This document shows positions 4,214 to 42,800 of a stretch of DNA of 43,752 nucleotides, one piece after another. Origin of the DNA: a virus (Duplodnaviria > Heunggongvirae > Uroviricota > Caudoviricetes). The DNA lies in IMG/VR virus record IMGVR_UViG_2695420521_000005, positions 1 to 43,752 of that record, one strand, 5' to 3'. The first letter of the stretch is position 1. The number at the start of each line of letters is the position of its first letter. Under the pieces are notes generated by a model. It was not told where the DNA came from. It searched no databases and worked only from the letters and a program-made list of their open reading frames with translations. The position numbers and the translations under genes are program-made.

Positions 4214-4510
4214 TTATACCTCTGAATCAATATCAACCTGATGGTGAGCAATGGTTTCAACCATGTACCGGATGTGTTCTGCCATGCGCTCCTGAAACTC
4301 AACATCGTCATCAAATGCACGGGTAATGGCTTTTTTGCTGGCCCCGTGGCGTTGCAAATGATCGATGCAGAGTGATTCAAACAGGTGCTGTGGAAGACCT
4401 TTTTCCATGTCGTCTGCCAGTTCTGCCTCTTTCTCTTCACGGGCAATCTGCTGGTAGTGACGCGCCCAGCTCTGAGCCTCAAGACGATCCTGAATGTAAT
4501 AAGCGTTCAT
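4214..4510 (-). CDS. gam: RecBCD inhibitor Gam (short GamS-length form)
   Basis: 98-aa product [60 protein letters not shown]... matches lambda GamS; the frame is open further upstream but that part does not match the lambda long-form N-terminus as I recall it. Confidence 0.9.
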
Positions 4511-4585
4511 GGCTGAACTCCTGAAAATGGCTGTGAAAATATCGCCCGCGAAATGCCAGGCTGATTAGGAAAACAGGAAAGGGGA

Positions 4586-4996
4586 TTAGTGATTCAGGCC
4601 GTTGCCTCGTCCGTCGAGAAAAACTTCCACGAGCAAATCACGGGTATAAGTGCGCTCGATGCCGCGATGCAGATATAGCCGTCCGCGTAAATTAGCTGAT
4701 GCTGTCCAGGTACCATCTTTGTGTTTGACCAGCATTCCTGGCATGACCGCACCGCGATTAACGGTCTGCGTTCCGTAATGTTGATGAACCATAAAAACTC
4801 CTGCCCGTAAGCTGGGCTGCTGAACATATAAAGACTTCTGCGCGTATTCAGGCGGTGGATGGCCGCCGGTTGTCATAACTAAGCCGCCTCGTTGAAGCGA
4901 CTGAGGTATGAAATGTTGAGTTAATTTCAGCTGGTCACACCGACGTTCACGCGTCCGCTTCACCCCTCGCACTTCCCGGAGCCTGCTGAAATTCAA
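4586..4996 (-). CDS. hypothetical protein in the N-gene position
   Basis: ORF between gam and the putative pL/oL region. As drawn it starts at a TTG and would have an Arg-rich N-terminus (VRGVKRTRERRCDQLK) reminiscent of N-type arginine-rich motifs; the first ATG is internal (about 4876), giving 96 aa. No kil or cIII homologues are visible between gam and this ORF. Confidence 0.4.
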   Translation of the reverse strand: MNFSRLREVRGVKRTRERRCDQLKLTQHFIPQSLQRGGLVMTTGGHPPPEYAQKSLYVQQPSLRAGVFMVHQHYGTQTVNRGAVMPGMLVKHKDGTWTASANLRGRLYLHRGIERTYTRDLLVEVFLDGRGNGLNH

Positions 4997-5079
4997 GCTA
5001 CGGATCTAAGCGGTCATCGCAACGGTGAATCAGGTGGTTGCCGTATCGTTGTGTTGTTGCGATATGATGATAATAGCTA

Positions 5080-5190
5080 TTGCTATTGGTGATATCAATA
5101 CTTATTGCTATTGACTGATGTGTTTTGATATTAAATGTTTGATAGCAAAAAGAATTAATTTTGTGACTTGCATCGCATAGCGATAACTGA
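5080..5190 (-). promoter_or_regulatory. putative oL/pL operator-promoter region
   Basis: AT-rich intergenic region between the rexB-position gene and the N-position ORF. Holds two copies of TTGCTATTG (5090-5098, 5105-5113), a motif also found twice in the cI-cro intergenic region, plus a 5-3-5 palindrome ATCGCATAGCGAT near 5171-5183. Confidence 0.4.
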
Positions 5191-5271
5191 AGCAGGGGCA
5201 TGGTGGTTTTTTGAACGGTGTGTGATGAGGGGAGGCAAAAGAAAACCCGGCACGACGGCCGGGGAGGGGGG

Positions 5272-5778
5272 TCATTTTAATCTATCAAGGAGTGACTCTC
5301 TTTCCTTCTTCTCTGATTCTCTTCGGTTTAATAACGCTTTAAACTCTTGAAGCTCAACCATTATTTTATGAACGAATACACTGGTATAGAGAGAAATAAA
5401 GAGTAATCCACCTGAAATTTTTAAGACCCTGAAGAGTAGGGCTTGATCATTTGTGCTTGCTATTAACCCCAAGATTACAAACAAAGTTGAAAATACATAG
5501 AAAGCTAATAATAAAACCAATTTCAGTCTCTTGGATTTGACTATTGGCACTAATCGCCTAACCTCACTAGGGGTTAAAGACGAGTGGTCATTGGCCTCAT
5601 TTGCCTTAAAAATGGCTTGTATACAATATGATAATGGCAATTGCATGAGTCCAACCACAGCCCACGGAGCTGTTAGGACAACACCCGGTGTAATATAGCC
5701 CAATGCTGACTTGAACAAAAAGTAACCAGCAACATAGAAGACCAACATACCAATAAGGTGGATGATGTTCGATTTCAT
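5272..5778 (-). CDS. small integral membrane protein (about 4 TM helices) in the rexB position
   Basis: 168 aa with four hydrophobic segments (IIHLIGMLVFYVAGYFLF; VVLTAPWAVVGLMQLPLSYCIQAIF; LKLVLLLAFYVFSTLFVILGLIAS; GGLLFISLYTSVFV) and a charged C-terminal tail. Strong RBS (AGGAGG) 6 nt before the ATG; only 21 bp after the stop of the upstream 340-aa gene; visibly AT-rich. Confidence 0.75.
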   Translation of the reverse strand: MKSNIIHLIGMLVFYVAGYFLFKSALGYITPGVVLTAPWAVVGLMQLPLSYCIQAIFKANEANDHSSLTPSEVRRLVPIVKSKRLKLVLLLAFYVFSTLFVILGLIASTNDQALLFRVLKISGGLLFISLYTSVFVHKIMVELQEFKALLNRRESEKKERESLLDRLK

Positions 5779-5799
5779 TATCGCCCTCCTTTTGGTAGG

Positions 5800-6822
5800 T
5801 TATTTTGCAACCAATTCTCCGGCATCAAGTTTTGAGAACAGCCACTTATGCATTTTTAAGAATAAATCATTTTCATCAATAATGCCATTGTTATGTTCAA
5901 CGCTAATTTTTCCGGATAATTTTATCTCTTTTCCCGTTATTTCCCCACCGCCTTGAAGTTTGATGCTAATATCATCCTCATCTAGATGTCGTAGTGAGGT
6001 AGCAATACTGTCTATAACAGCTTGACCGCTATCATTTGTTTTTCTGAAGTATGTAATCTCGAGGCTTACTTGTAAATTGGCCTCATCTAATGAATCTTTA
6101 ATGTTTATATCATTTGCCCAGTTATCGCCAAAAAATGCTTTTAGTAGCGCACCTCCTTTCCCTATTGGGCGGTATTTTATTGTCTTCACCGAACCATTTG
6201 AAAAGGAGGGTGTTTGGTTCTCTGAATTTTTAACTTCTGAAGTAATGGGTAATCCACCAATTTTTATGCTCTTGGCTGGTGCTTTCTCCATTTTTTTCAT
6301 CGTTTCTTCGGATGGCTTATCTTGAAGCATTAACACAGATTCTTTTTCATCTGTGAATGTATTAATTAGCCAATTCAAATGCGCCTCAAGCTCCCTTGCT
6401 CGAAGCGATGTGGATTGAACGATCATGACATGGTTGTTTAGTACACCAAAATATAAAATTGAATCTACAAACTCTCTTTTTTTGTCACTACGTTTATCTC
6501 CATCAATAATTATATCATTAGACGTGATGGAGTTAATGTCATAAAATTTAACATTATCACTAAGCTCTAATAGAGACTGGCTTTTGTCTTTTTCAAATAA
6601 AACCAGTTGCCCAAAAAGTATAGTTTTGTATGTGTCGCTTTTATTTAAGAAACGATACCCCGAATTTTCATCTGAAGGTGTTATTTTTTCTTGTCTACTA
6701 AGTACTTTTTCTGCAACGCCGCCCTCACCTATAATACTAAGTAGTATGTTTTGTAATGATGATTTGCTGTGTGGGATTACTGCTTTTTTATAATGAACGA
6801 CTTTTTGTCTGTTATCTTTCAT
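5800..6822 (-). CDS. hypothetical cytoplasmic protein in the rexA position
   Basis: 340-aa ORF immediately downstream of cI on the same strand; Lys/Asp/Glu/Ser-rich, no catalytic motif recognised; visibly AT-rich; forms an operon with the downstream membrane protein. Confidence 0.75.
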   Translation of the reverse strand: MKDNRQKVVHYKKAVIPHSKSSLQNILLSIIGEGGVAEKVLSRQEKITPSDENSGYRFLNKSDTYKTILFGQLVLFEKDKSQSLLELSDNVKFYDINSITSNDIIIDGDKRSDKKREFVDSILYFGVLNNHVMIVQSTSLRARELEAHLNWLINTFTDEKESVLMLQDKPSEETMKKMEKAPAKSIKIGGLPITSEVKNSENQTPSFSNGSVKTIKYRPIGKGGALLKAFFGDNWANDINIKDSLDEANLQVSLEITYFRKTNDSGQAVIDSIATSLRHLDEDDISIKLQGGGEITGKEIKLSGKISVEHNNGIIDENDLFLKMHKWLFSKLDAGELVAK

Positions 6823-6879
6823 TGCTATAGTCCAACTAGTATTGAATAAATAAACACAGTAAAGACATAAAAATTTCTT

Positions 6880-6909
6880 ATAGCTACCGATAACGTAATC
6901 GGTAGCTAT
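6880..6909 (-). terminator. perfect 11-bp inverted repeat between cI and the downstream moron (possible intrinsic terminator or regulatory hairpin)
   Basis: ATAGCTACCGA-TAACGTAA-TCGGTAGCTAT; on the minus (transcribed) strand the stem is followed by AAGAAATTTTTATG, which is partly U-rich. Confidence 0.45.
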
Positions 6910-6944
6910 TACAAATCAACCAAAGGTAATTCTTTACATACTAC

Positions 6945-7637
6945 CTACCCATGCTTCCTGTAGGTCTGCGGCATGCTCCCAATAACTTTCCCGAAGATAA
7001 ACACCCGGTTCATCTCGTCTTTCTCGATAGGATCCCACGGTGAGTAGCTCTTGTTATCAGAGATAACCAGCAGTTTATCCTTCATCATTTGCAGGCGCTT
7101 TACATGGGCGGTGTCGTCGTACAGAAATGCATAGATACCATCACCGTCGAAAGATTTAACCGTGATATCAACGAACAGCAGATCACCTGGTTCGATCGTT
7201 CCTGACATGCTGTCACCACGCACGTTAATGATGCGGATATTTTCTGCCTTCCTGCCATCGAACATGTGACGAGCATCGTCAAACGAGTACTCAACCGAGC
7301 GTAGAACTTCTACAAACTCACGGTTGATGACTCCCGGCCCGGCACTGACTTCTATATCAAGAACGTCAATTTTGAAGTATTTGGAATGGCTGACAGCAGG
7401 CTTCCCTGATTGTTGACCGTCATTTCTCATCGGGCCTATGCCTGATGAGAGCCATTCTGTTCGAACACCCAATGCATTAGCTATTTCAACAATTTTTGTT
7501 GAGCCGCGCGCGTTGCCGCTTGTCAGTCTCCAGATTGTGGGTTGAGCTACGCCAGACGCCTTTGCAAGAGCGCCTTGAGACATTCCAGATTGTTCCATCG
7601 CTAGGTTTAAGCGATCAGCAAGAGTTTCTTTTTTCAT
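6945..7637 (-). CDS. cI: CI-type prophage repressor (HTH plus S24 LexA-like autopeptidase domain)
   Basis: N-terminal HTH (MSQGALAKASGVAQPTIWRL) and C-terminal S24 signature (GDSM serine, VKRL lysine); divergent from cro. The first ATG is at 7637 with no SD, consistent with a leaderless pRM-type transcript; the ORF track extends to a TTG at 7673. Sequence is not lambda CI, so the immunity specificity is different. Confidence 0.85.
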   Translation of the reverse strand: MKKETLADRLNLAMEQSGMSQGALAKASGVAQPTIWRLTSGNARGSTKIVEIANALGVRTEWLSSGIGPMRNDGQQSGKPAVSHSKYFKIDVLDIEVSAGPGVINREFVEVLRSVEYSFDDARHMFDGRKAENIRIINVRGDSMSGTIEPGDLLFVDITVKSFDGDGIYAFLYDDTAHVKRLQMMKDKLLVISDNKSYSPWDPIEKDEMNRVFIFGKVIGSMPQTYRKHG

Positions 7638-7747
7638 AAGTTTTAATTTATACGCTTGCGTATTGATGGTCAAAACACGTTTTGCTATTGCTTGGATTAA
7701 TACGCATTGCTATTATTCATTCATTGCAATACCAATAGGAATTGATA
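7638..7747. promoter_or_regulatory. putative oR / pR-pRM divergent operator-promoter region
   Basis: 110-bp AT-rich cI-cro intergenic region with the palindrome ATACGCttGCGTAT (7650-7663), TTGCTATTG at 7682-7690, TTGCTATT at 7707-7714 and the palindromic ATTGCAAT at about 7723-7730. Confidence 0.5.
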
Positions 7748-7975
7748 ATGACAAATCAAACCATTCAACTCGCAATCAGTATTACAGGTAGTCAAAAGCG
7801 ACTGGCAGATCTATGCGGTGTAGCCCAGCCCACTGTTTGGCGTTGGCTACACGGTGGCGGAATTGATGCCCGCTATGTAATGAAAATTGTCTCAGCCACT
7901 GGTGGAAAGATTAAACCAGCAGATATTCGTCCCGACCTCGCACCATTGTTTAACGCGAGTAATTCTGCCGCCTAA
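7748..7975 (+). CDS. cro: Cro-like HTH repressor
   Basis: About 75 aa from the ATG at 7748 (SD AGGA 7 nt upstream); HTH QKRLADLCGVAQPTVWRW; divergent from cI. Confidence 0.8.
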   Translation: MTNQTIQLAISITGSQKRLADLCGVAQPTVWRWLHGGGIDARYVMKIVSATGGKIKPADIRPDLAPLFNASNSAA

Positions 7976-7983
7976 TCTGCGGC
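7967..7983 (+). terminator. small hairpin at the cro stop (possible tR1-like element)
   Basis: GCCGC-ctaatct-GCGGC stem-loop spanning the cro stop codon; no strong U-tract, so if functional it is probably Rho-dependent or N-modulated. Confidence 0.2.
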
Positions 7984-7999
7984 GTTAACTGATAAGGCA

Positions 8000-8545
8000 A
8001 TGACTATGCAACCACTTACATACCAACAGACTAGCGGATTTAGCCCGACTGCGGTGATAAATCGTTCTCAAACAAAACAAGCTCCAGGCCACGAAAAAAT
8101 CCGTGATGCCGTCCGCGCCTGGTCGGCTGCAGATAATCAGGATGTTGTTGCCGCACTCATTGTGAATGAGTATCGGGAGCAGGGCGGCGGCACCATCGAT
8201 TTCCCTGATGATGTCAGCCGTGCACGCCAGAAGCTGTTCCGCTTCCTCGATAACAAATTCGATTCTGAAAAATACCGAAATAACGTGCGTGAACTGACCC
8301 CGGCAATTCTGGCGGTACTACCGCTGGAATATCGCGGCCACCTGGTTGAGCAGGATAGCTTCATGGCTCGGCTGGCTGAAATGGAAAAGGAACTCAGTGA
8401 GGCAAAACAGGCTGTCATTCTCAACGCACCACGCCACCAGAAACTGAAGGAGATGAGTGAAGGCATTGTGTCGATGTTTCGTGTGGACCCGGATCTGGCT
8501 GGTCCACTGATGGCGATGGTCACCACCATGCTGGGGGCAATATGA
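8000..8545 (+). CDS. YdaT-family (CII-like domain) regulatory protein
   Basis: 181 aa in the cII position; the segment NEYREQGGG...TPAILAVLPLEYRGHL resembles E. coli Rac YdaT (EEYLRQGGG...IPAILAILPRELRHRL) as I recall it. Confidence 0.65.
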   Translation: MTMQPLTYQQTSGFSPTAVINRSQTKQAPGHEKIRDAVRAWSAADNQDVVAALIVNEYREQGGGTIDFPDDVSRARQKLFRFLDNKFDSEKYRNNVRELTPAILAVLPLEYRGHLVEQDSFMARLAEMEKELSEAKQAVILNAPRHQKLKEMSEGIVSMFRVDPDLAGPLMAMVTTMLGAI

Positions 8546-39809: not shown

Positions 39810-39820
39810 GTGGGGTGAAT

Positions 39821-42800
39821 ATGACGGTTAAGATTTCAGGTGTACTGAAAGATGGAGCAGGCAAACCGGTACAAAACTGTACCATTCAGCTAAAGGCCAG
39901 ACGCAACAGCACCACGGTGGTGGTGAACACGGTGGCCTCAGAAAATCCGGATGAAGCCGGGCGTTACAGCATGGACGTTGAGTATGGCCAGTACAGCGTC
40001 ACCCTGCTGGTTGAAGGTTTTCCGCCTTCGCATGCCGGGACCATCACCGTGTATGAAGATTCTCAACCCGGTACGCTGAATGATTTTCTCGGCGCAATGA
40101 CGGAGGATGATGCCCGTCCGGAGGCACTGCGTCGTTTTGAACTGATGGTGGAAGAGGTGGCGCGTAACGCGTCCGTGGTGGCACAGAACACGGCAGCCGC
40201 AAAGAAGTCAGCCAGTGATGCCAGCACATCTGCCAGTGAGGCGGCAACCCGTGCGACTGATGCTGCAGATTCAGCACGTGCAGCCAGCACGTCAGCCGGA
40301 CAGGCCGCGTCGTCGGCTCAGTCAGCGTCTTCCAGCGCAGGAACGGCATCAACAAAGGCCACTGAAGCCTCAAAAAGTGCTGCCGCTGCAGAGTCCTCAA
40401 AAAGCGCGGCGGCTACCAGTGCCGGTGCGGCGAAAACGTCAGAAACGAATGCGGCAGCGTCAGAACAATCAGCCGCCACTTCTGCATCCACCGCGACCAC
40501 GAAAGCGTCAGAAGCTGCCACCTCAGCCAGGGATGCGTCGGCTTCAAAAGAGGCGGCAAAATCATCAGAAACGAACGCATCATCAAGCGCCAGTAGTGCA
40601 GCTTCCTCGGCAACGGCGGCAGGAAATTCCGCGAAGGCGGCAAAGACGTCTGAGACAAACGCCAGGTCTTCTGAAACGGCAGCAGCACAGAGTGCCTCAG
40701 CTGCGGCAGGCTCAAAAACAGCGGCTGCATCATCTGCCAGTGCCGCGTCAACAAGTGCCGGGCAGGCCTCAGCCAGTGCCACCGCTGCCGGAAAGTCGGC
40801 AGAAAGTGCCGCATCGTCTGCTTCAACAGCCACAACGAAGGCTGGCGAAGCCACTGAACAGGCCAGTGCAGCAGCGAGGTCTGCTTCCGCAGCGAAGACA
40901 TCCGAGACGAACGCGAAAGCGTCGGAAACCAGCGCAGAATCCTCAAAAACGGCTGCCGCATCGTCCGCCAGTTCGGCGGCGTCATCGGCCTCATCGGCGT
41001 CTGCTTCAAAAGATGAGGCGACCAGACAAGCGTCCGCAGCGAAGGGCAGCGCCACGACAGCATCCACGAAGGCGACAGAGGCAGCTGGCAGTGCGACGGC
41101 GGCAGCACAGAGCAAAAGTACGGCGGAATCCGCGGCAACGCGCGCCGAGACAGCGGCAAAACGGGCAGAGGATATTGCATCCGCCGTGGCGCTTGAGGAT
41201 GCAAGTACGACGAAAAAGGGGATAGTACAGCTCAGCAGTGCGACCAACAGCACGTCTGAAACGCTGGCGGCAACGCCAAAGGCAGTAAAATCAGCCTATG
41301 ACAATGCAGAGAAACGTCTGCAGAAAGACCAGAACGGCGCTGATATACCCGATAAGGGACGCTTCCTGAACAACATTAACGCGGTCAGTAAAACAGACTT
41401 TGCTGATAAGCGTGGTATGCGTTATGTGCGGGTTAACGCTCCTGCAGGTGCAACATCTGGAAAATATTACCCTGTTGTTGTTATGCGTTCTGCTGGCTCA
41501 GTAAGCGAACTGGCATCAAGGGTCATTATCACCACGGCAACGCGAACCGCAGGCGATCCGATGAATAACTGCGAGTTTAACGGATTTGTTATGCCTGGTG
41601 GCTGGACTGACAGGGGGCGTTATGCTTATGGAATGTTCTGGCAATATCAAAACAATGAACGAGCCATCCACTCAATAATGATGAGTAATAAGGGCGATGA
41701 TTTGCGCTCTGTGTTCTATGTTGATGGCGCTGCTTTCCCTGTTTTTGCGTTTATCGAAGATGGCCTGTCAATATCCGCACCTGGTGCTGATCTCGTTGTT
41801 AATGATACGACCTATAAGTTTGGGGCAACAAATCCAGCGACTGAATGTATCGCGGCGGACGTTATCCTTGATTTTAAGAGTGGGCGTGGTTTTTATGAGT
41901 CTCATTCGTTAATCGTTAACGATAACTTGTCGTGCAAAAAACTTTTTGCCACAGACGAAATTGTAGCGCGTGGTGGTAATCAGATTCGAATGATAGGTGG
42001 GGAGTATGGTGCATTATGGCGTAATGATGGCGCTAAAACTTACCTGCTGCTTACCAATCAAGGTGATGTTTATGGTGGCTGGAATACATTAAGACCGTTT
42101 GCTATTGATAACGCAACCGGCGAACTGGTTATTGGAACCAAACTGTCCGCAAGTCTGAACGGTAATGCATTAACAGCAACAAAGCTGCAAACGCCAAGAC
42201 TGGTTTCTGGTGTTGAGTTTGATGGTTCCAAAGATATTACTTTAACCGCCGCGCATGTGGCTGCTTTTGCCAGAAGGGCAACGGATACGTATGCCGATGC
42301 GGATGGGGGCGTTCCATGGAATGCCGAATCAGGCGCTTACAATGTCACCCGCTCTGGCGACAGCTATATTCTGGTTAACTTCTATACCGGAGTCGGAAGT
42401 TGCCGGACCCTGCAGATGAAGGCACATTACAGAAATGGAGGTCTGTTCTACCGTTCCTCAAGAGATGGCTATGGTTTTGAGGAAGACTGGGCAGAAGTTT
42501 ATACCTCGAAAAATCTTCCACCAGAAAGCTACCCAGTCGGCGCACCAATCCCGTGGCCATCAGATACCGTTCCGTCTGGCTATGCCCTGATGCAGGGGCA
42601 GACTTTTGACAAATCTGCATACCCGAAACTTGCAGCCGCTTATCCGTCAGGCGTGATCCCTGATATGCGTGGCTGGACGATTAAGGGCAAACCTGCCAGT
42701 GGTCGGGCCGTATTGTCTCAGGAACAGGACGGCATTAAATCGCACACCCACAGCGCCAGCGCATCCAGTACGGATTTGGGGACGAAAACCACATCGTCGT

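Follow-up and report, generated by a model that had tools for sequence, protein, structure and literature searches.

Which DNA sequence does a phage repressor recognize when its specificity is not that of lambda, and is a lambda-type switch laid out around that sequence? The question arises at a locus within a phage record of 43,752 nucleotides, the whole of which was analyzed and is termed the window here. An initial annotation, made from the sequence alone, had described a non-lambda immunity region in which one 9-mer, TTGCTATTG, recurs at both putative operators, and had proposed it as part of the repressor recognition sequence. Of 5426 complete E. coli genomes, 723 (13%) contain the region, and across positions 4900-8000 the window matches phage Perceval at 98% identity.

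Genes of the immunity region

The genes cI and cro are divergent and lie 110 bp apart, with three to four copies of the motif in between. The surrounding features are as follows.

6945-7637, minus strand: cI repressor, 230 aa, 434-like HTH and LexA-like S24 autoprotease (Pfam Peptidase_S24, 1.3e-18; HTH_3, 1.8e-6)
7748-7975, plus strand: cro, 75 aa, YdaS/Cro family (Pfam YdaS_toxin PF15943, 9.6e-15)
8000-8545, plus strand: YdaT-type functional analogue of cII (Pfam YdaT_toxin PF06254, 7.6e-30)
5272-6822, minus strand: two cargo genes (ORFs) downstream of cI, co-oriented with it and in the rexAB position
5800-6822, minus strand: cargo gene (ORF), 340 aa
5272-5778, minus strand: cargo gene (ORF), 168-aa membrane protein
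5246-5263, minus strand: intrinsic terminator closing the cI operon, CCCGGCCGTCGTGCCGGG then TTTTCTTTTG

The autoprotease residues of cI, read from the translation, are Ala99-Gly100 and Ser143/Lys180. The initial annotation had called cI and Cro unlike their lambda counterparts. For cI this holds for specificity only, as its architecture is the same HTH plus S24 arrangement as in lambda CI; the non-lambda specificity itself is borne out by an HTH identical to that of phages ST104, SE1 and BTP1 and by a Cro of the YdaS family. The recognition helices of the two proteins are nearly equal in alignment (GVAQPTVWR in Cro, GVAQPTIWR in cI). Neither cargo gene has a match in Pfam or PADLOC, and both fall in PHROGs families of unknown function; the 168-aa membrane protein is reported at 81-fold above background in an LF82 lysogen (PMC9928086).

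A recurrent 9-mer is one half of a symmetric site

Exact copies of TTGCTATTG occur at 5080-5088, 5105-5113, 7682-7690 and 42099-42107, that is, four times against 0.45 expected, and at least four copies were reached in none of 100 shuffles of the window. The recurrence at both putative operators is thus real, and about 220 bp of operator DNA account for three of the four exact copies. Among the positions first given, 5105, 7682 and 7707 are right, 5090 should read 5080, and the copy at 7707 is the 8-mer TTGCTATT. This 8-mer has seven matches against 1.6 expected and adds 7707-7714, 370 and 5457 to the exact sites, so that the search of the whole prophage, which had been suggested as a check, yields one further exact copy (42099, inside a tail-fibre-sized ORF) and two further 8-mers. 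A similar density throughout AT-rich DNA had been named as evidence that would speak against the motif; the AT-rich moron block at 5272-6822 holds a single 8-mer and no strong matrix site, and since the operators hold three of the four exact copies, the 9-mer is not a by-product of AT richness. ATASSNNNNSSTAT behaves likewise: 0.26 copies would be expected in the window and four are present, three at the two operators.

The analysis also covered 30 related prophage loci, 221 kb in all, which come from more than 12 genera, among them Kluyvera, Citrobacter, Enterobacter, Raoultella, Proteus, Providencia, Morganella and Serratia. TTGCTATTG proves to be the consensus half-site (TAATAGCAA on the other strand) of a putative 18-bp two-fold symmetric operator, the full predicted consensus being TAATAGCAA followed by TTGCTATTA. 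Both halves fit one 9-bp matrix on opposite strands, with ATA at half-site positions 3-5 conserved at 95-98%, and a perfect 18-bp palindrome, TAATAGCAATTGCTATTA, occurs at the oL3 position in Enterobacter-type loci.

For scoring, a matrix was built solely from 35 oL sites of other genera and then run on the window, where a random sequence would be expected to give 0.18 matches at 13 bits or more and about 0.8 at 10 bits or more. Its best four matches are oL1, oR1, oL2 and oR4, and 11 of the 13 highest sit within the two operator regions. Across the 30 loci, 206 matches comprised 102 at oR, 96 in a single second cluster located 770-3250 bp downstream of cI, and 8 elsewhere; both clusters were present in 28 of the 30. 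A repeat finder independently returned direct repeats of 24 nt in oL (25-bp spacing) and of 19 nt in oR (50-bp spacing).

Putative operator sites overlie predicted promoters

The operator sites and promoters of the window are given below in order of position.

5064-5162, no strand: oL/pL module, the whole block travelling with this cI specificity
5070-5098, minus strand: predicted pL, −35 TTGATA (5098-5093), 17 nt, −10 TATTAT (5075-5070), promoter scan 10/12
5071-5088: oL1, TAATAGCTATTGCTATTG, 26.3 bits, the strongest site, spanning the pL spacer and −10 and holding the 9-mer at 5080
5096-5113: oL2, CAATACTTATTGCTATTG, 22.1 bits, 25 bp from oL1, holding the 9-mer at 5105
5116-5133: oL3, degenerate in the window, TGATGTGTTTTGATATTA, 9.5 bits
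5140-5157: oL4 candidate, TGATAGCAAAAAGAATTA, 11.5 bits, with a canonical left half and an AATTC-type right half
7645-7673, minus strand: predicted pRM, −35 TTGACC (7673-7668), 17 nt, −10 TAAATT (7650-7645), promoter scan 9/12
7648-7665: oR3, TTATACGCTTGCGTATTG, 11.1 bits, between the pRM −35 and −10, outer half-site bases invariant in 22 sequences
7673-7690: oR2, AAACACGTTTTGCTATTG, 9.7 bits, one consensus half (9-mer at 7682) and one weak half
7689-7716, plus strand: predicted pR, −35 TTGCTT (7689-7694), 16 nt, −10 TATTAT (7711-7716), read from the sequence
7698-7715: oR1, TAATACGCATTGCTATTA, 25.0 bits, spanning the pR spacer and −10 and holding the 8-mer at 7707
7727-7744: oR4 candidate, CAATACCAATAGGAATTG, 17.0 bits, the fourth-best window match, at about +4 to +21 of pR

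Sites oR3, oR2 and oR1 are spaced 25 bp apart between cI and cro. The overlap of operators with pR, pL and pRM is clear at the hexamers, the promoters themselves being predictions: the final TATTA of both oR1 and oL1 forms, with one more T, the −10 TATTAT, and the final TTG of oR2 and oL2 is the start of a −35. Next to the pRM −35, oR2 also overlaps that of pR, and oL2 overlaps the pL −35 by 3 bp. The pR −35 fits the consensus at three of six positions, which is why the promoter scan does not list pR; in relatives it reads TTGCTA or TTGTTA. An alignment of 22 oR sequences shows no variation in the half-site cores, little or none in the pRM and pR hexamers, and spacers that vary. GCTATTG of oR2 and ATAC of the oR4 candidate are the same in all 22 sequences, as is ATAC..ATTGCTATTAT of oR1 save one base in one sequence. 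Because oR2, oR3, oL3 and oL4 score just 9.5-11.5 bits, in a range where about 0.8 random-window matches are expected at 10 bits or more, their status as sites rests on position and conservation.

Three additional palindromes had been listed as elements separate from the 9-mers, and all three are present. The one reported at 7650 (ATACGCttGCGTAT) corresponds to ATACGCTTGCGTAT at 7650-7663, which lies within oR3 and so belongs to the same operator family. Near 7723, (C)ATTGCAAT at 7722-7730 is not conserved as an element in the oR alignment; its conserved part is the CAAT end alone, with which the candidate oR4 begins. The third, ATCGCATAGCGAT at 5172-5184, is retained in the heteroimmune phage PhiR5_1 and is therefore not part of an immunity-specific operator.

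The initial annotation had further noted that the first ATG of cI (7637) has no Shine-Dalgarno sequence and had taken this as consistent with a leaderless message. None of AGGA, GGAG, GAGG or AAGG is found at −20 to −4 of this ATG, and a Shine-Dalgarno sequence before the cI ATG was likewise missing in 27 loci. The pRM −10 lies 7 nt from the ATG (6 in one locus), a gap that is conserved together with the pRM hexamers in 22 aligned prophages even as the intervening bases vary; one relative carries an in-frame stop at codon −4 of cI. This geometry and the missing Shine-Dalgarno sequence make a leaderless cI mRNA from the putative pRM a well-supported prediction. In BTP1, cI and bstA form one operon with a single start site (PMC7067206).

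Operators and repressor DNA-binding domain are exchanged together

Part of the oR homology among the relatives reflects common descent; more independent evidence comes from module swaps between phages and from oL sites in other genera. The heteroimmune mosaic PhiR5_1 has flanks 95-96% identical to the window, with two segments replaced, from 5064 to about 5158 and 7502-8004. A scan of PhiR5_1 for the operator motif gave no matches: the motif was replaced together with the DNA-binding domain of cI, and the oL4 candidate falls within the swapped module. Salmonella SE1 and Klebsiella ST11-VIM1phi8.2 have just the oL block and cI-oR-cro in common with the window; their shared left-arm DNA comprises 5072-5162 and 5051-5165, respectively, and nothing else. 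HK022, whose HTH is different, gave no matches when scanned with the operator matrix. The proposal that the 9-mer is part of the repressor recognition sequence is thus strengthened by its identity as the consensus half-site and by its exchange along with the cI DNA-binding domain.

Comparison with known immunity systems

Comparison with lambdoid immunity groups, another of the checks suggested at the outset, assigned cI, oR and oL to the ST104/BTP1 type, whose members are ST104, SE1 and BTP1 (Salmonella, P22-like) and Perceval, 4A7, 3W and PhiR30_1 (E. coli). Over its first 54 residues cI is 93% identical to the repressors of ST104, SE1 and BTP1, and residues 18-58, which include the helix AQPTIWRLTSG, are identical; conservation of oR runs in blocks, and at oL, which has the same 18-bp motif, a matrix trained on the window found the SE1 and ST104 sites CAATAGCATTGAGTATTA and CAATACGTTTTGCTATTA. 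‘ST104’ has been described as a distinct repressor specificity type, experimentally unstudied at the time, alongside a rule of thumb that repressors of one type share at least 92% whole-protein identity (Villafane et al. 2008, PMC2629481). Whole-protein cI identity to the ST104/BTP1 repressors is 86% and falls below this rule, with the differences in the linker and C-terminal domain. The Salmonella ST104-type phages also differ in other respects: they carry an N gene, their CII is of the lambda type, their cargo is different (BstA, for example), and the right half of their oR4 is degenerate. Our literature search turned up no paper that defines the operators of a member of this type, and no protein-DNA binding, immunity or transcript-end experiment.

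With lambda the region shares divergent cI and cro genes around a tripartite operator whose middle site adjoins the pRM −35 and whose third site lies within pRM, operators overlapping the −10 and −35 predicted for pR and pL, a second cluster at pL (about 2.6 kb away here, 2.4 kb in lambda), a self-cleaving HTH plus S24 repressor, cargo genes downstream of cI, and a predicted leaderless cI from pRM. It differs in an 18-bp operator with half-site TAATAGCAA rather than a 17-bp operator of TATCACCGC type, a site spacing of 25 rather than 23-24 bp, a YdaS-family Cro, a YdaT-type protein in place of cII, the lack of an N gene after pL, and candidate fourth sites at both operators.

The PaaR2/YdaS/YdaT region of CP-933P (E. 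coli O157:H7; Jurenas et al. 2021; Prolic-Kalinsek et al. 2023) likewise has a YdaS-family Cro and a YdaT-family cII analogue, and its repressor gene is leaderless, as predicted for cI here. Its intergenic region contains four footprinted 18-bp palindromes, two well conserved on PRM and PR and two without a conserved half, with matching operators at PL (PMC8630535), a layout that parallels oR3, oR2, oR1 and oR4 here. However, its repressor is PaaR2, accompanied by the toxin-antitoxin pair paaA2-parE2, whereas the window encodes an S24 cI; its half-site is GTTTAGTAA, not TAATAGCAA; and its YdaT, of which the structure 8bt1 is solved, is only remotely similar to that of the window (E = 2e-4).

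The closest solved DNA-binding domain to that of cI is that of the 434 repressor (E about 1e-5), alike in fold and sequence, yet the helices differ (QQSIEQL in 434, AQPTIWR here) and the 14-bp 434 operator, ACAA-N6-TTGT, is dissimilar. P22 c2 operators are 18 bp long as well, with sequences not similar to those of the window. The HK022 repressor, named as a similar protein in the ST104 GenBank annotation, has the same architecture and 40% identity, but another HTH and operators of TGAAC-N5-GTTCA type. Its middle operator was reportedly found by Carlson and Little in 1993 to be very weak and to rely on cooperativity.

Alternative explanations

The reading with the largest, if still small, share of probability besides our own is that the sites are recognized mainly by a protein other than cI: Cro alone, YdaT or, at the distal part of oL, a host protein (IHF, for instance). 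Since cI and Cro always co-occur in the relatives, sequence cannot tell which protein prefers which site, and the near-equality of their recognition helices favors a role of Cro; a Cro-only reading, however, would leave cI without sites, and to our knowledge repressor and Cro use common operators in every lambdoid switch studied. The IHF consensus is WATCAANNNNTTR, and the oL3/oL4 junction TATCAAACATTTA (minus strand) fits it by eye; this match, however, is composed of two half-sites that resemble those of the operator, and SE1 lacks it. YdaT is ruled out as the binder by SE1, BTP1 and Klebsiella ST11, which have a lambda/P22-type CII yet the same operators, and its published site, TTGATTN6AATCAA, differs from the operators here (PMC9986795). 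We regard it as very unlikely that the 9-mers are duplicated promoter parts, i.e., TTGCTA-like −35 and TATT-rich −10 elements of paralogous pL and pR. It is true that the pR −35 starts with the last TTG of the oR2 9-mer, that TATTA of oR1 and oL1 forms a −10, and that PL and PR of CP-933P have identical hexamers too (PMC8630535). Yet, because pL is on the minus strand and the exact 9-mers at oL lie in the promoter-distal half, their orientation relative to transcription at oL is the reverse of that at oR. Moreover, pRM, whose hexamers differ, contains the same 18-mer (oR3), every unit is internally two-fold symmetric, and in PhiR5_1 the entire block has been swapped along with the cI HTH between flanks that are retained.

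An equally slim chance attaches to tandem, iteron-like direct repeats in place of dimer-binding palindromes. The four 9-mer copies first noted are all on the plus strand, and direct repeats were indeed returned at both operators, but the opposite-strand fit of the two halves and the perfect or near-perfect palindromes, including TAATAGCAATTGCTATTA and ATACGCTTGCGTAT, speak for symmetric units. HTH plus S24 repressors (lambda, 434, P22, LexA) bind as dimers, as would be expected of this cI. Chance recurrence in AT-rich intergenic DNA, finally, might be suspected from the AT richness of both regions and the exact copy at 42099; it is refuted by the shuffle and cluster counts (198 of 206 matches in the two expected clusters across 221 kb) along with the moron block, which is AT-rich and has no strong site, and we accord it next to no probability.

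A proposed switch and its possible outer sites

We therefore consider it very probable that the region encodes a lambda-type switch between lysis and lysogeny, one that belongs to the ST104/BTP1 immunity type and has 18-bp symmetric cI operators. The anatomy of the motif, its exclusive placement, its conservation and its co-variation with the cI DNA-binding domain are directly established. Actual binding, the order in which sites fill, activation, looping and the ends of transcripts are inferred, along the following lines. As a dimer, cI would bind the 18-bp operators, of which oR1 overlies the pR −10, oR2 touches the −35 of both pR and pRM, and oR3 lies within pRM; oL1 and oL2 would cover pL in like manner about 2.6 kb away. 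With one good half and one weak half, oR2 probably needs cooperative help from oR1. In the lysogen, cI on oR1/oR2 and oL1/oL2 would shut pR and pL, and cI at oR2 would stimulate pRM until, at high concentration, oR3 is occupied and pRM shut. The pRM transcript would begin at the cI AUG or within a few nucleotides of it and would therefore be leaderless. Upon DNA damage, RecA-stimulated self-cleavage at Ala99-Gly100 would release repression, and Cro would then bind the same sites through its nearly identical recognition helix, with oR4, oL3 and oL4 as candidate weaker sites.

More tentatively, both operators may be four-site arrays with conserved outer hybrid sites, oR4 and oL4, as opposed to three sites in lambda, a reading that we consider possible but somewhat unlikely. 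Each candidate may pair a canonical half-site with a conserved variant half of AATTC type. The four-site reading draws on the invariant ATAC in 22 sequences; on joint changes of oR4 positions 1 and 18 from C..G to T..A in three distinct sequences; on the block TTGATAGCnAAnnGAATTTATTTT, placed 44 bp from oL2 in SE1 and Klebsiella ST11 as in the window and kept in most other relatives shown; and on the CP-933P layout. The oR4 candidate overlies the cro Shine-Dalgarno sequence, and the oL4 candidate lies about 65-85 bp upstream of the predicted pL start. If the reading is true, oR4 and oL4 could provide a second tier of control absent from lambda, whether as a roadblock or translational occlusion of cro, as anchors of a dedicated oL4-oR4 loop, or as sites preferred by Cro. 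The switch type itself is common in enterobacteria; as an element it is of an ordinary kind, and what is new is its DNA specificity.

Gene order of the immunity region

The window, a lambdoid prophage, matches Escherichia phage Perceval at 98% identity across 4900-8000; Perceval is the prophage of LF82 and belongs to the genus Bievrevirus. The gene order of the window begins at the left end with exo, bet and gam, followed by a phi80-like kil and the pL region, and continues with the features below.

Features from the pL region to the replication genes
5246-5263: terminator between the pL region and the cargo genes
5272-5778, minus strand: cargo gene for a 168-aa membrane protein
5800-6822, minus strand: cargo gene for a 340-aa soluble protein
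6945-7637, minus strand: cI (HTH_3 and Peptidase_S24; Ala99-Gly100, Ser143/Lys180)
7748-7975: cro, YdaS family
8000-8545: YdaT-type cII analogue, followed by O and P

Among solved DNA-binding domains, that of the 434 repressor is closest to the one in cI, with differences at the contact positions. The window and the Salmonella phages ST104, SE1 and BTP1 have identical cI residues 18-58, a stretch that contains the helix AQPTIWRLTSG. The segment GVAQPT(I/V)WR is common to cI and Cro, consistent with the two proteins reading the same sites.

A predicted 18-bp operator at oR and oL

Exact copies of the 9-mer TTGCTATTG occur at 5080, 5105, 7682 and 42099 (four observed against 0.45 expected, a number reached by no shuffle), and an 8-mer version adds a copy at 7707. 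The initial annotation had placed 5105, 7682 and 7707 correctly, while its fourth position, 5090, should read 5080. When the copies are lined up, each proves to belong to an 18-bp unit, with the 9-mer on the right and the same sequence, on the opposite strand, as the left half. We infer an 18-bp operator, TAATAGCAA/TTGCTATTA, with three sites between cI and cro (oR) and two at pL (oL).

Predicted operators (left half/right half)
5071-5088: oL1, TAATAGCTA/TTGCTATTG
5096-5113: oL2, CAATACTTA/TTGCTATTG
7648-7665: oR3, TTATACGCT/TGCGTATTG
7673-7690: oR2, AAACACGTT/TTGCTATTG
7698-7715: oR1, TAATACGCA/TTGCTATTA

The sites are spaced 25 bp start to start throughout, a periodicity recovered independently by a repeat finder. 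A second operator register, TGATATCAATACTTATTG (5090-5107), overlaps oL2 at a 6-bp offset and coincides with the predicted pL -35 (TTGATA); many relatives have a strong form of it, with a 12-bp palindrome, CAATACGTATTG, that makes two alternative 18-bp sites. All three palindromes reported in the initial annotation are present (5172-5184, 7650-7663 and 7722-7730), although ATACGCttGCGTAT, described there as separate, is the core of oR3. ATTGCAAT (7722-7730) was ruled out as an element since even Perceval does not conserve it, and 42090-42107 was ruled out as a site because its score is no better than chance and a 1119-aa ORF spans it.

The five window sites were used to train a matrix, which was applied to 30 prophage loci (221 kb) from other genera, each encoding a relative of the cI DNA-binding domain. 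This matrix returned 206 matches of at least 12.5 bits: 102 in the cI-cro gap, 96 in a single cluster downstream of cI, at a distance of 770-3250 bp, and only eight elsewhere, with both clusters present in 28 of the 30 loci. A reverse matrix, for which only 35 oL sites from these genera were used, yielded the half-site TAATAGCAA and scored highest in the window at oL1 (26.3 bits), oR1 (25.0), oL2 (22.1) and 7727-7744 (17.0), with lower values at 5140-5157 (11.5), oR3 (11.1), oR2 (9.7) and 5116-5133 (9.5); 0.18 matches of at least 13 bits are expected in a random window. Across 22 aligned oR regions, the invariant columns are the half-site cores and parts of the predicted promoter hexamers, and the spacers vary. 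Motif density in AT-rich DNA, on which the initial annotation had let its proposal depend, does not refute it: the AT-rich cargo block carries no strong site.

The three further segments picked up by the reverse matrix are candidates for additional operators. In 7727-7744 (candidate oR4), ATAC is invariant in the 22-sequence alignment, and in three distinct sequences T..A jointly replaces C..G at positions 1 and 18; relative to pR the segment spans about +4 to +21, where it overlaps the cro ribosome site. Candidate oL4 (5140-5157) is a conserved block; its distance from oL2 is 44 bp in the window as well as in SE1 and Klebsiella ST11. At 5116-5133 lies a degenerate version of a site whose counterparts in Enterobacter loci are perfect palindromes. 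The same layout, with four 18-bp palindromes, is found in CP-933P, which likewise has a YdaS-type Cro (PMC8630535).

Exchange of the immunity cassette among relatives

Mosaic relatives separate the specific parts of the region from its shared flanks. Within the first 12 kb of the window, SE1 has only 5072-5162 and cI-oR-cro in common with it, and Klebsiella ST11-VIM1phi8.2 only 5051-5165, cI-oR-cro and part of gene O. Conversely, the heteroimmune mosaic phage PhiR5_1 is 95-96% identical on both flanks, while 5064 to ~5158 and 7502-8004 are replaced, with sharp recombination boundaries around both segments. PhiR5_1 has a different HTH, with a cI N-terminal domain 46% identical to that of the window, and the operator matrix found no matches in it; the C-terminal two-thirds of cI (90% identical) and ydaT-O-P (96%) are common to both phages. 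Since the oL block is exchanged in PhiR5_1 and retained in SE1 and Klebsiella ST11, it travels with the cI DNA-binding domain. By these boundaries, two pieces make up the exchangeable immunity cassette: a stretch comprising the first 45 cI codons, oR and cro, and a detached oL block of 95 bp. Together, the matrix tests and module swaps indicate that the initial annotation was right to regard the 9-mer as part of the repressor recognition sequence.

The perfect palindrome ATCGCATAGCGAT (5172-5184), between the cI-operon terminator and oL, is conserved in Perceval, 3W and PhiR5_1 and absent from relatives in other genera. Its retention by a heteroimmune phage rules it out as an operator and assigns it to the shared flank instead of the specific immunity module.

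HK022, named as similar in the ST104 record, differs in having another HTH and TGAAC-N5-GTTCA-type sites, and its scan with the operator matrix gave no matches. Klebsiella phage ST15-VIM1phi2.1, whose cI is 63% identical overall, carries HK022-like TGAAC...GTTCA-type repeats in oR, where the window's matrix likewise found no matches; it is a further case of an N-terminal domain swap on the shared C-terminal domain.

Promoters and the start of cI

Predicted promoters
5098-5070, minus strand: pL, TTGATA-17-TATTAT (promoter scan)
7673-7645, minus strand: pRM, TTGACC-17-TAAATT (promoter scan)
7689-7716: pR, TTGCTT-16-TATTAT (by eye)

Predicted pR and pL are built alike: the -10 consists of the O1 end TATTA and one further T, and the -35 begins with the TTG at the O2 end. 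O1 sites end in A and O2 sites in G because operator ends double as promoter parts. Similarly, the oR3 end TAA plus ATT forms the predicted pRM -10. The pR -35 is weak in the window and reads TTGCTA or TTGTTA in relatives.

In the 22 aligned oR regions the gap between the conserved -10 and the cI ATG is seven nucleotides of variable sequence (six in Pluralibacter), and no Shine-Dalgarno 4-mer precedes this ATG in the 27 near-group loci tested. The N-terminus MKKETL(A/S)DRLN is conserved, and cI residue 6-7 is where the 434 repressor domain begins to align; together these place the cI start at 7637. An upstream TTG at 7673 was ruled out as the start, being the TTG of the pRM -35 and separated from the ATG by a stop in Pluralibacter (codon -4). 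This arrangement supports a leaderless cI transcript, as predicted in the initial annotation. The lambda cI transcript is leaderless. The repressor transcript of CP-933P is leaderless as well (PMC8630535), and in BTP1 cI and bstA form one operon with a single start site (PMC7067206).

Left operon, cargo genes and the cro-ydaT gap

A leader of about 270 nt (271 nt, 4793-5063, minus strand) precedes kil, whose ATG at 4792 has a strong AGGAG ahead of it. No N-type antiterminator gene lies between pL and the first left-operon gene. The start of a 136-aa ORF (4586-4996, TTG at 4996), KRTRERR, resembles the N arginine-rich motif; it was rejected as an N-like protein, as this extension is probably non-coding because the Kil profile spans only residues 60-136 and AGGAG precedes the ATG at 4792. 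A search of the leader for put- or nut-like RNA gave a fold no better than shuffles (z = -0.85) and no Rfam match.

The cargo pair (5272-6822, minus strand) lies downstream of cI in the rexA/rexB position and echoes the RexA/RexB layout; it is a candidate defence or exclusion pair. Pfam and PADLOC searches of both genes gave no matches, and both fall into PHROGs families without assigned function. In relatives, the slot is occupied by BstA, HipA/HipD, GevT/GevA, ParA-like or other genes. The membrane protein was 81-fold above background in an LF82 lysogen; according to the Perceval paper, which does not mention operators, cI and this protein are expressed in the lysogen (PMC9928086).

Directly after P, 10392-12038 (plus strand) encodes a 548-aa protein in which a Pua-like domain (3.7e-43) is combined with a calcineurin-like phosphoesterase domain. 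Its PADLOC matches are weak (Effector endonuclease, 9e-10; PDC-S60; PDC-S10); the gene may be a further item of defence cargo. An IS009 match (43517-43715, plus strand; 207 bits, full length) at the far window end, beyond the 1119-aa ORF (39815-43174), is the sole Rfam match in the window; 4300-8700 gave none even at E up to 1.

The cro end and the cro-ydaT gap (7911-7990) carry inverted repeats: TTAAACCAGCAGAT/ATCTGCGGCGTTAA and, as read by eye, TTAACGC...GCGTTAA flanking a GCCGC/GCGGC hairpin. They could be a YdaT site or a terminator; at the equivalent place, CP-933P has a YdaT operator and a PRE-like promoter.

Discussion

The region is a lambda-type switch of standard design; we found no published operator definition for its specificity. 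ST104 was listed as a repressor specificity type, then without experimental study (PMC2629481). A literature search for the operator strings gave zero papers, and searches on BTP1 operators, ST104 immC, ST104/HK022 and GevT returned nothing on operators. Of 5426 complete E. coli genomes, 723 (13%) carry the immunity module at 95% identity or more, and it also occurs in Salmonella ST104, SE1 and BTP1, Klebsiella phages and prophages of at least 12 other enterobacterial genera. BTP1 is the spontaneously induced prophage of D23580, from the African epidemic ST313 lineage.

The operator model leaves the understanding of such switches unchanged. It predicts homoimmune prophages across genera and would provide exact targets for footprinting, reporters and induction studies in LF82/Perceval and D23580/BTP1, as well as another repressor/operator pair for circuit building, orthogonal to those of lambda, 434, P22 and HK022.
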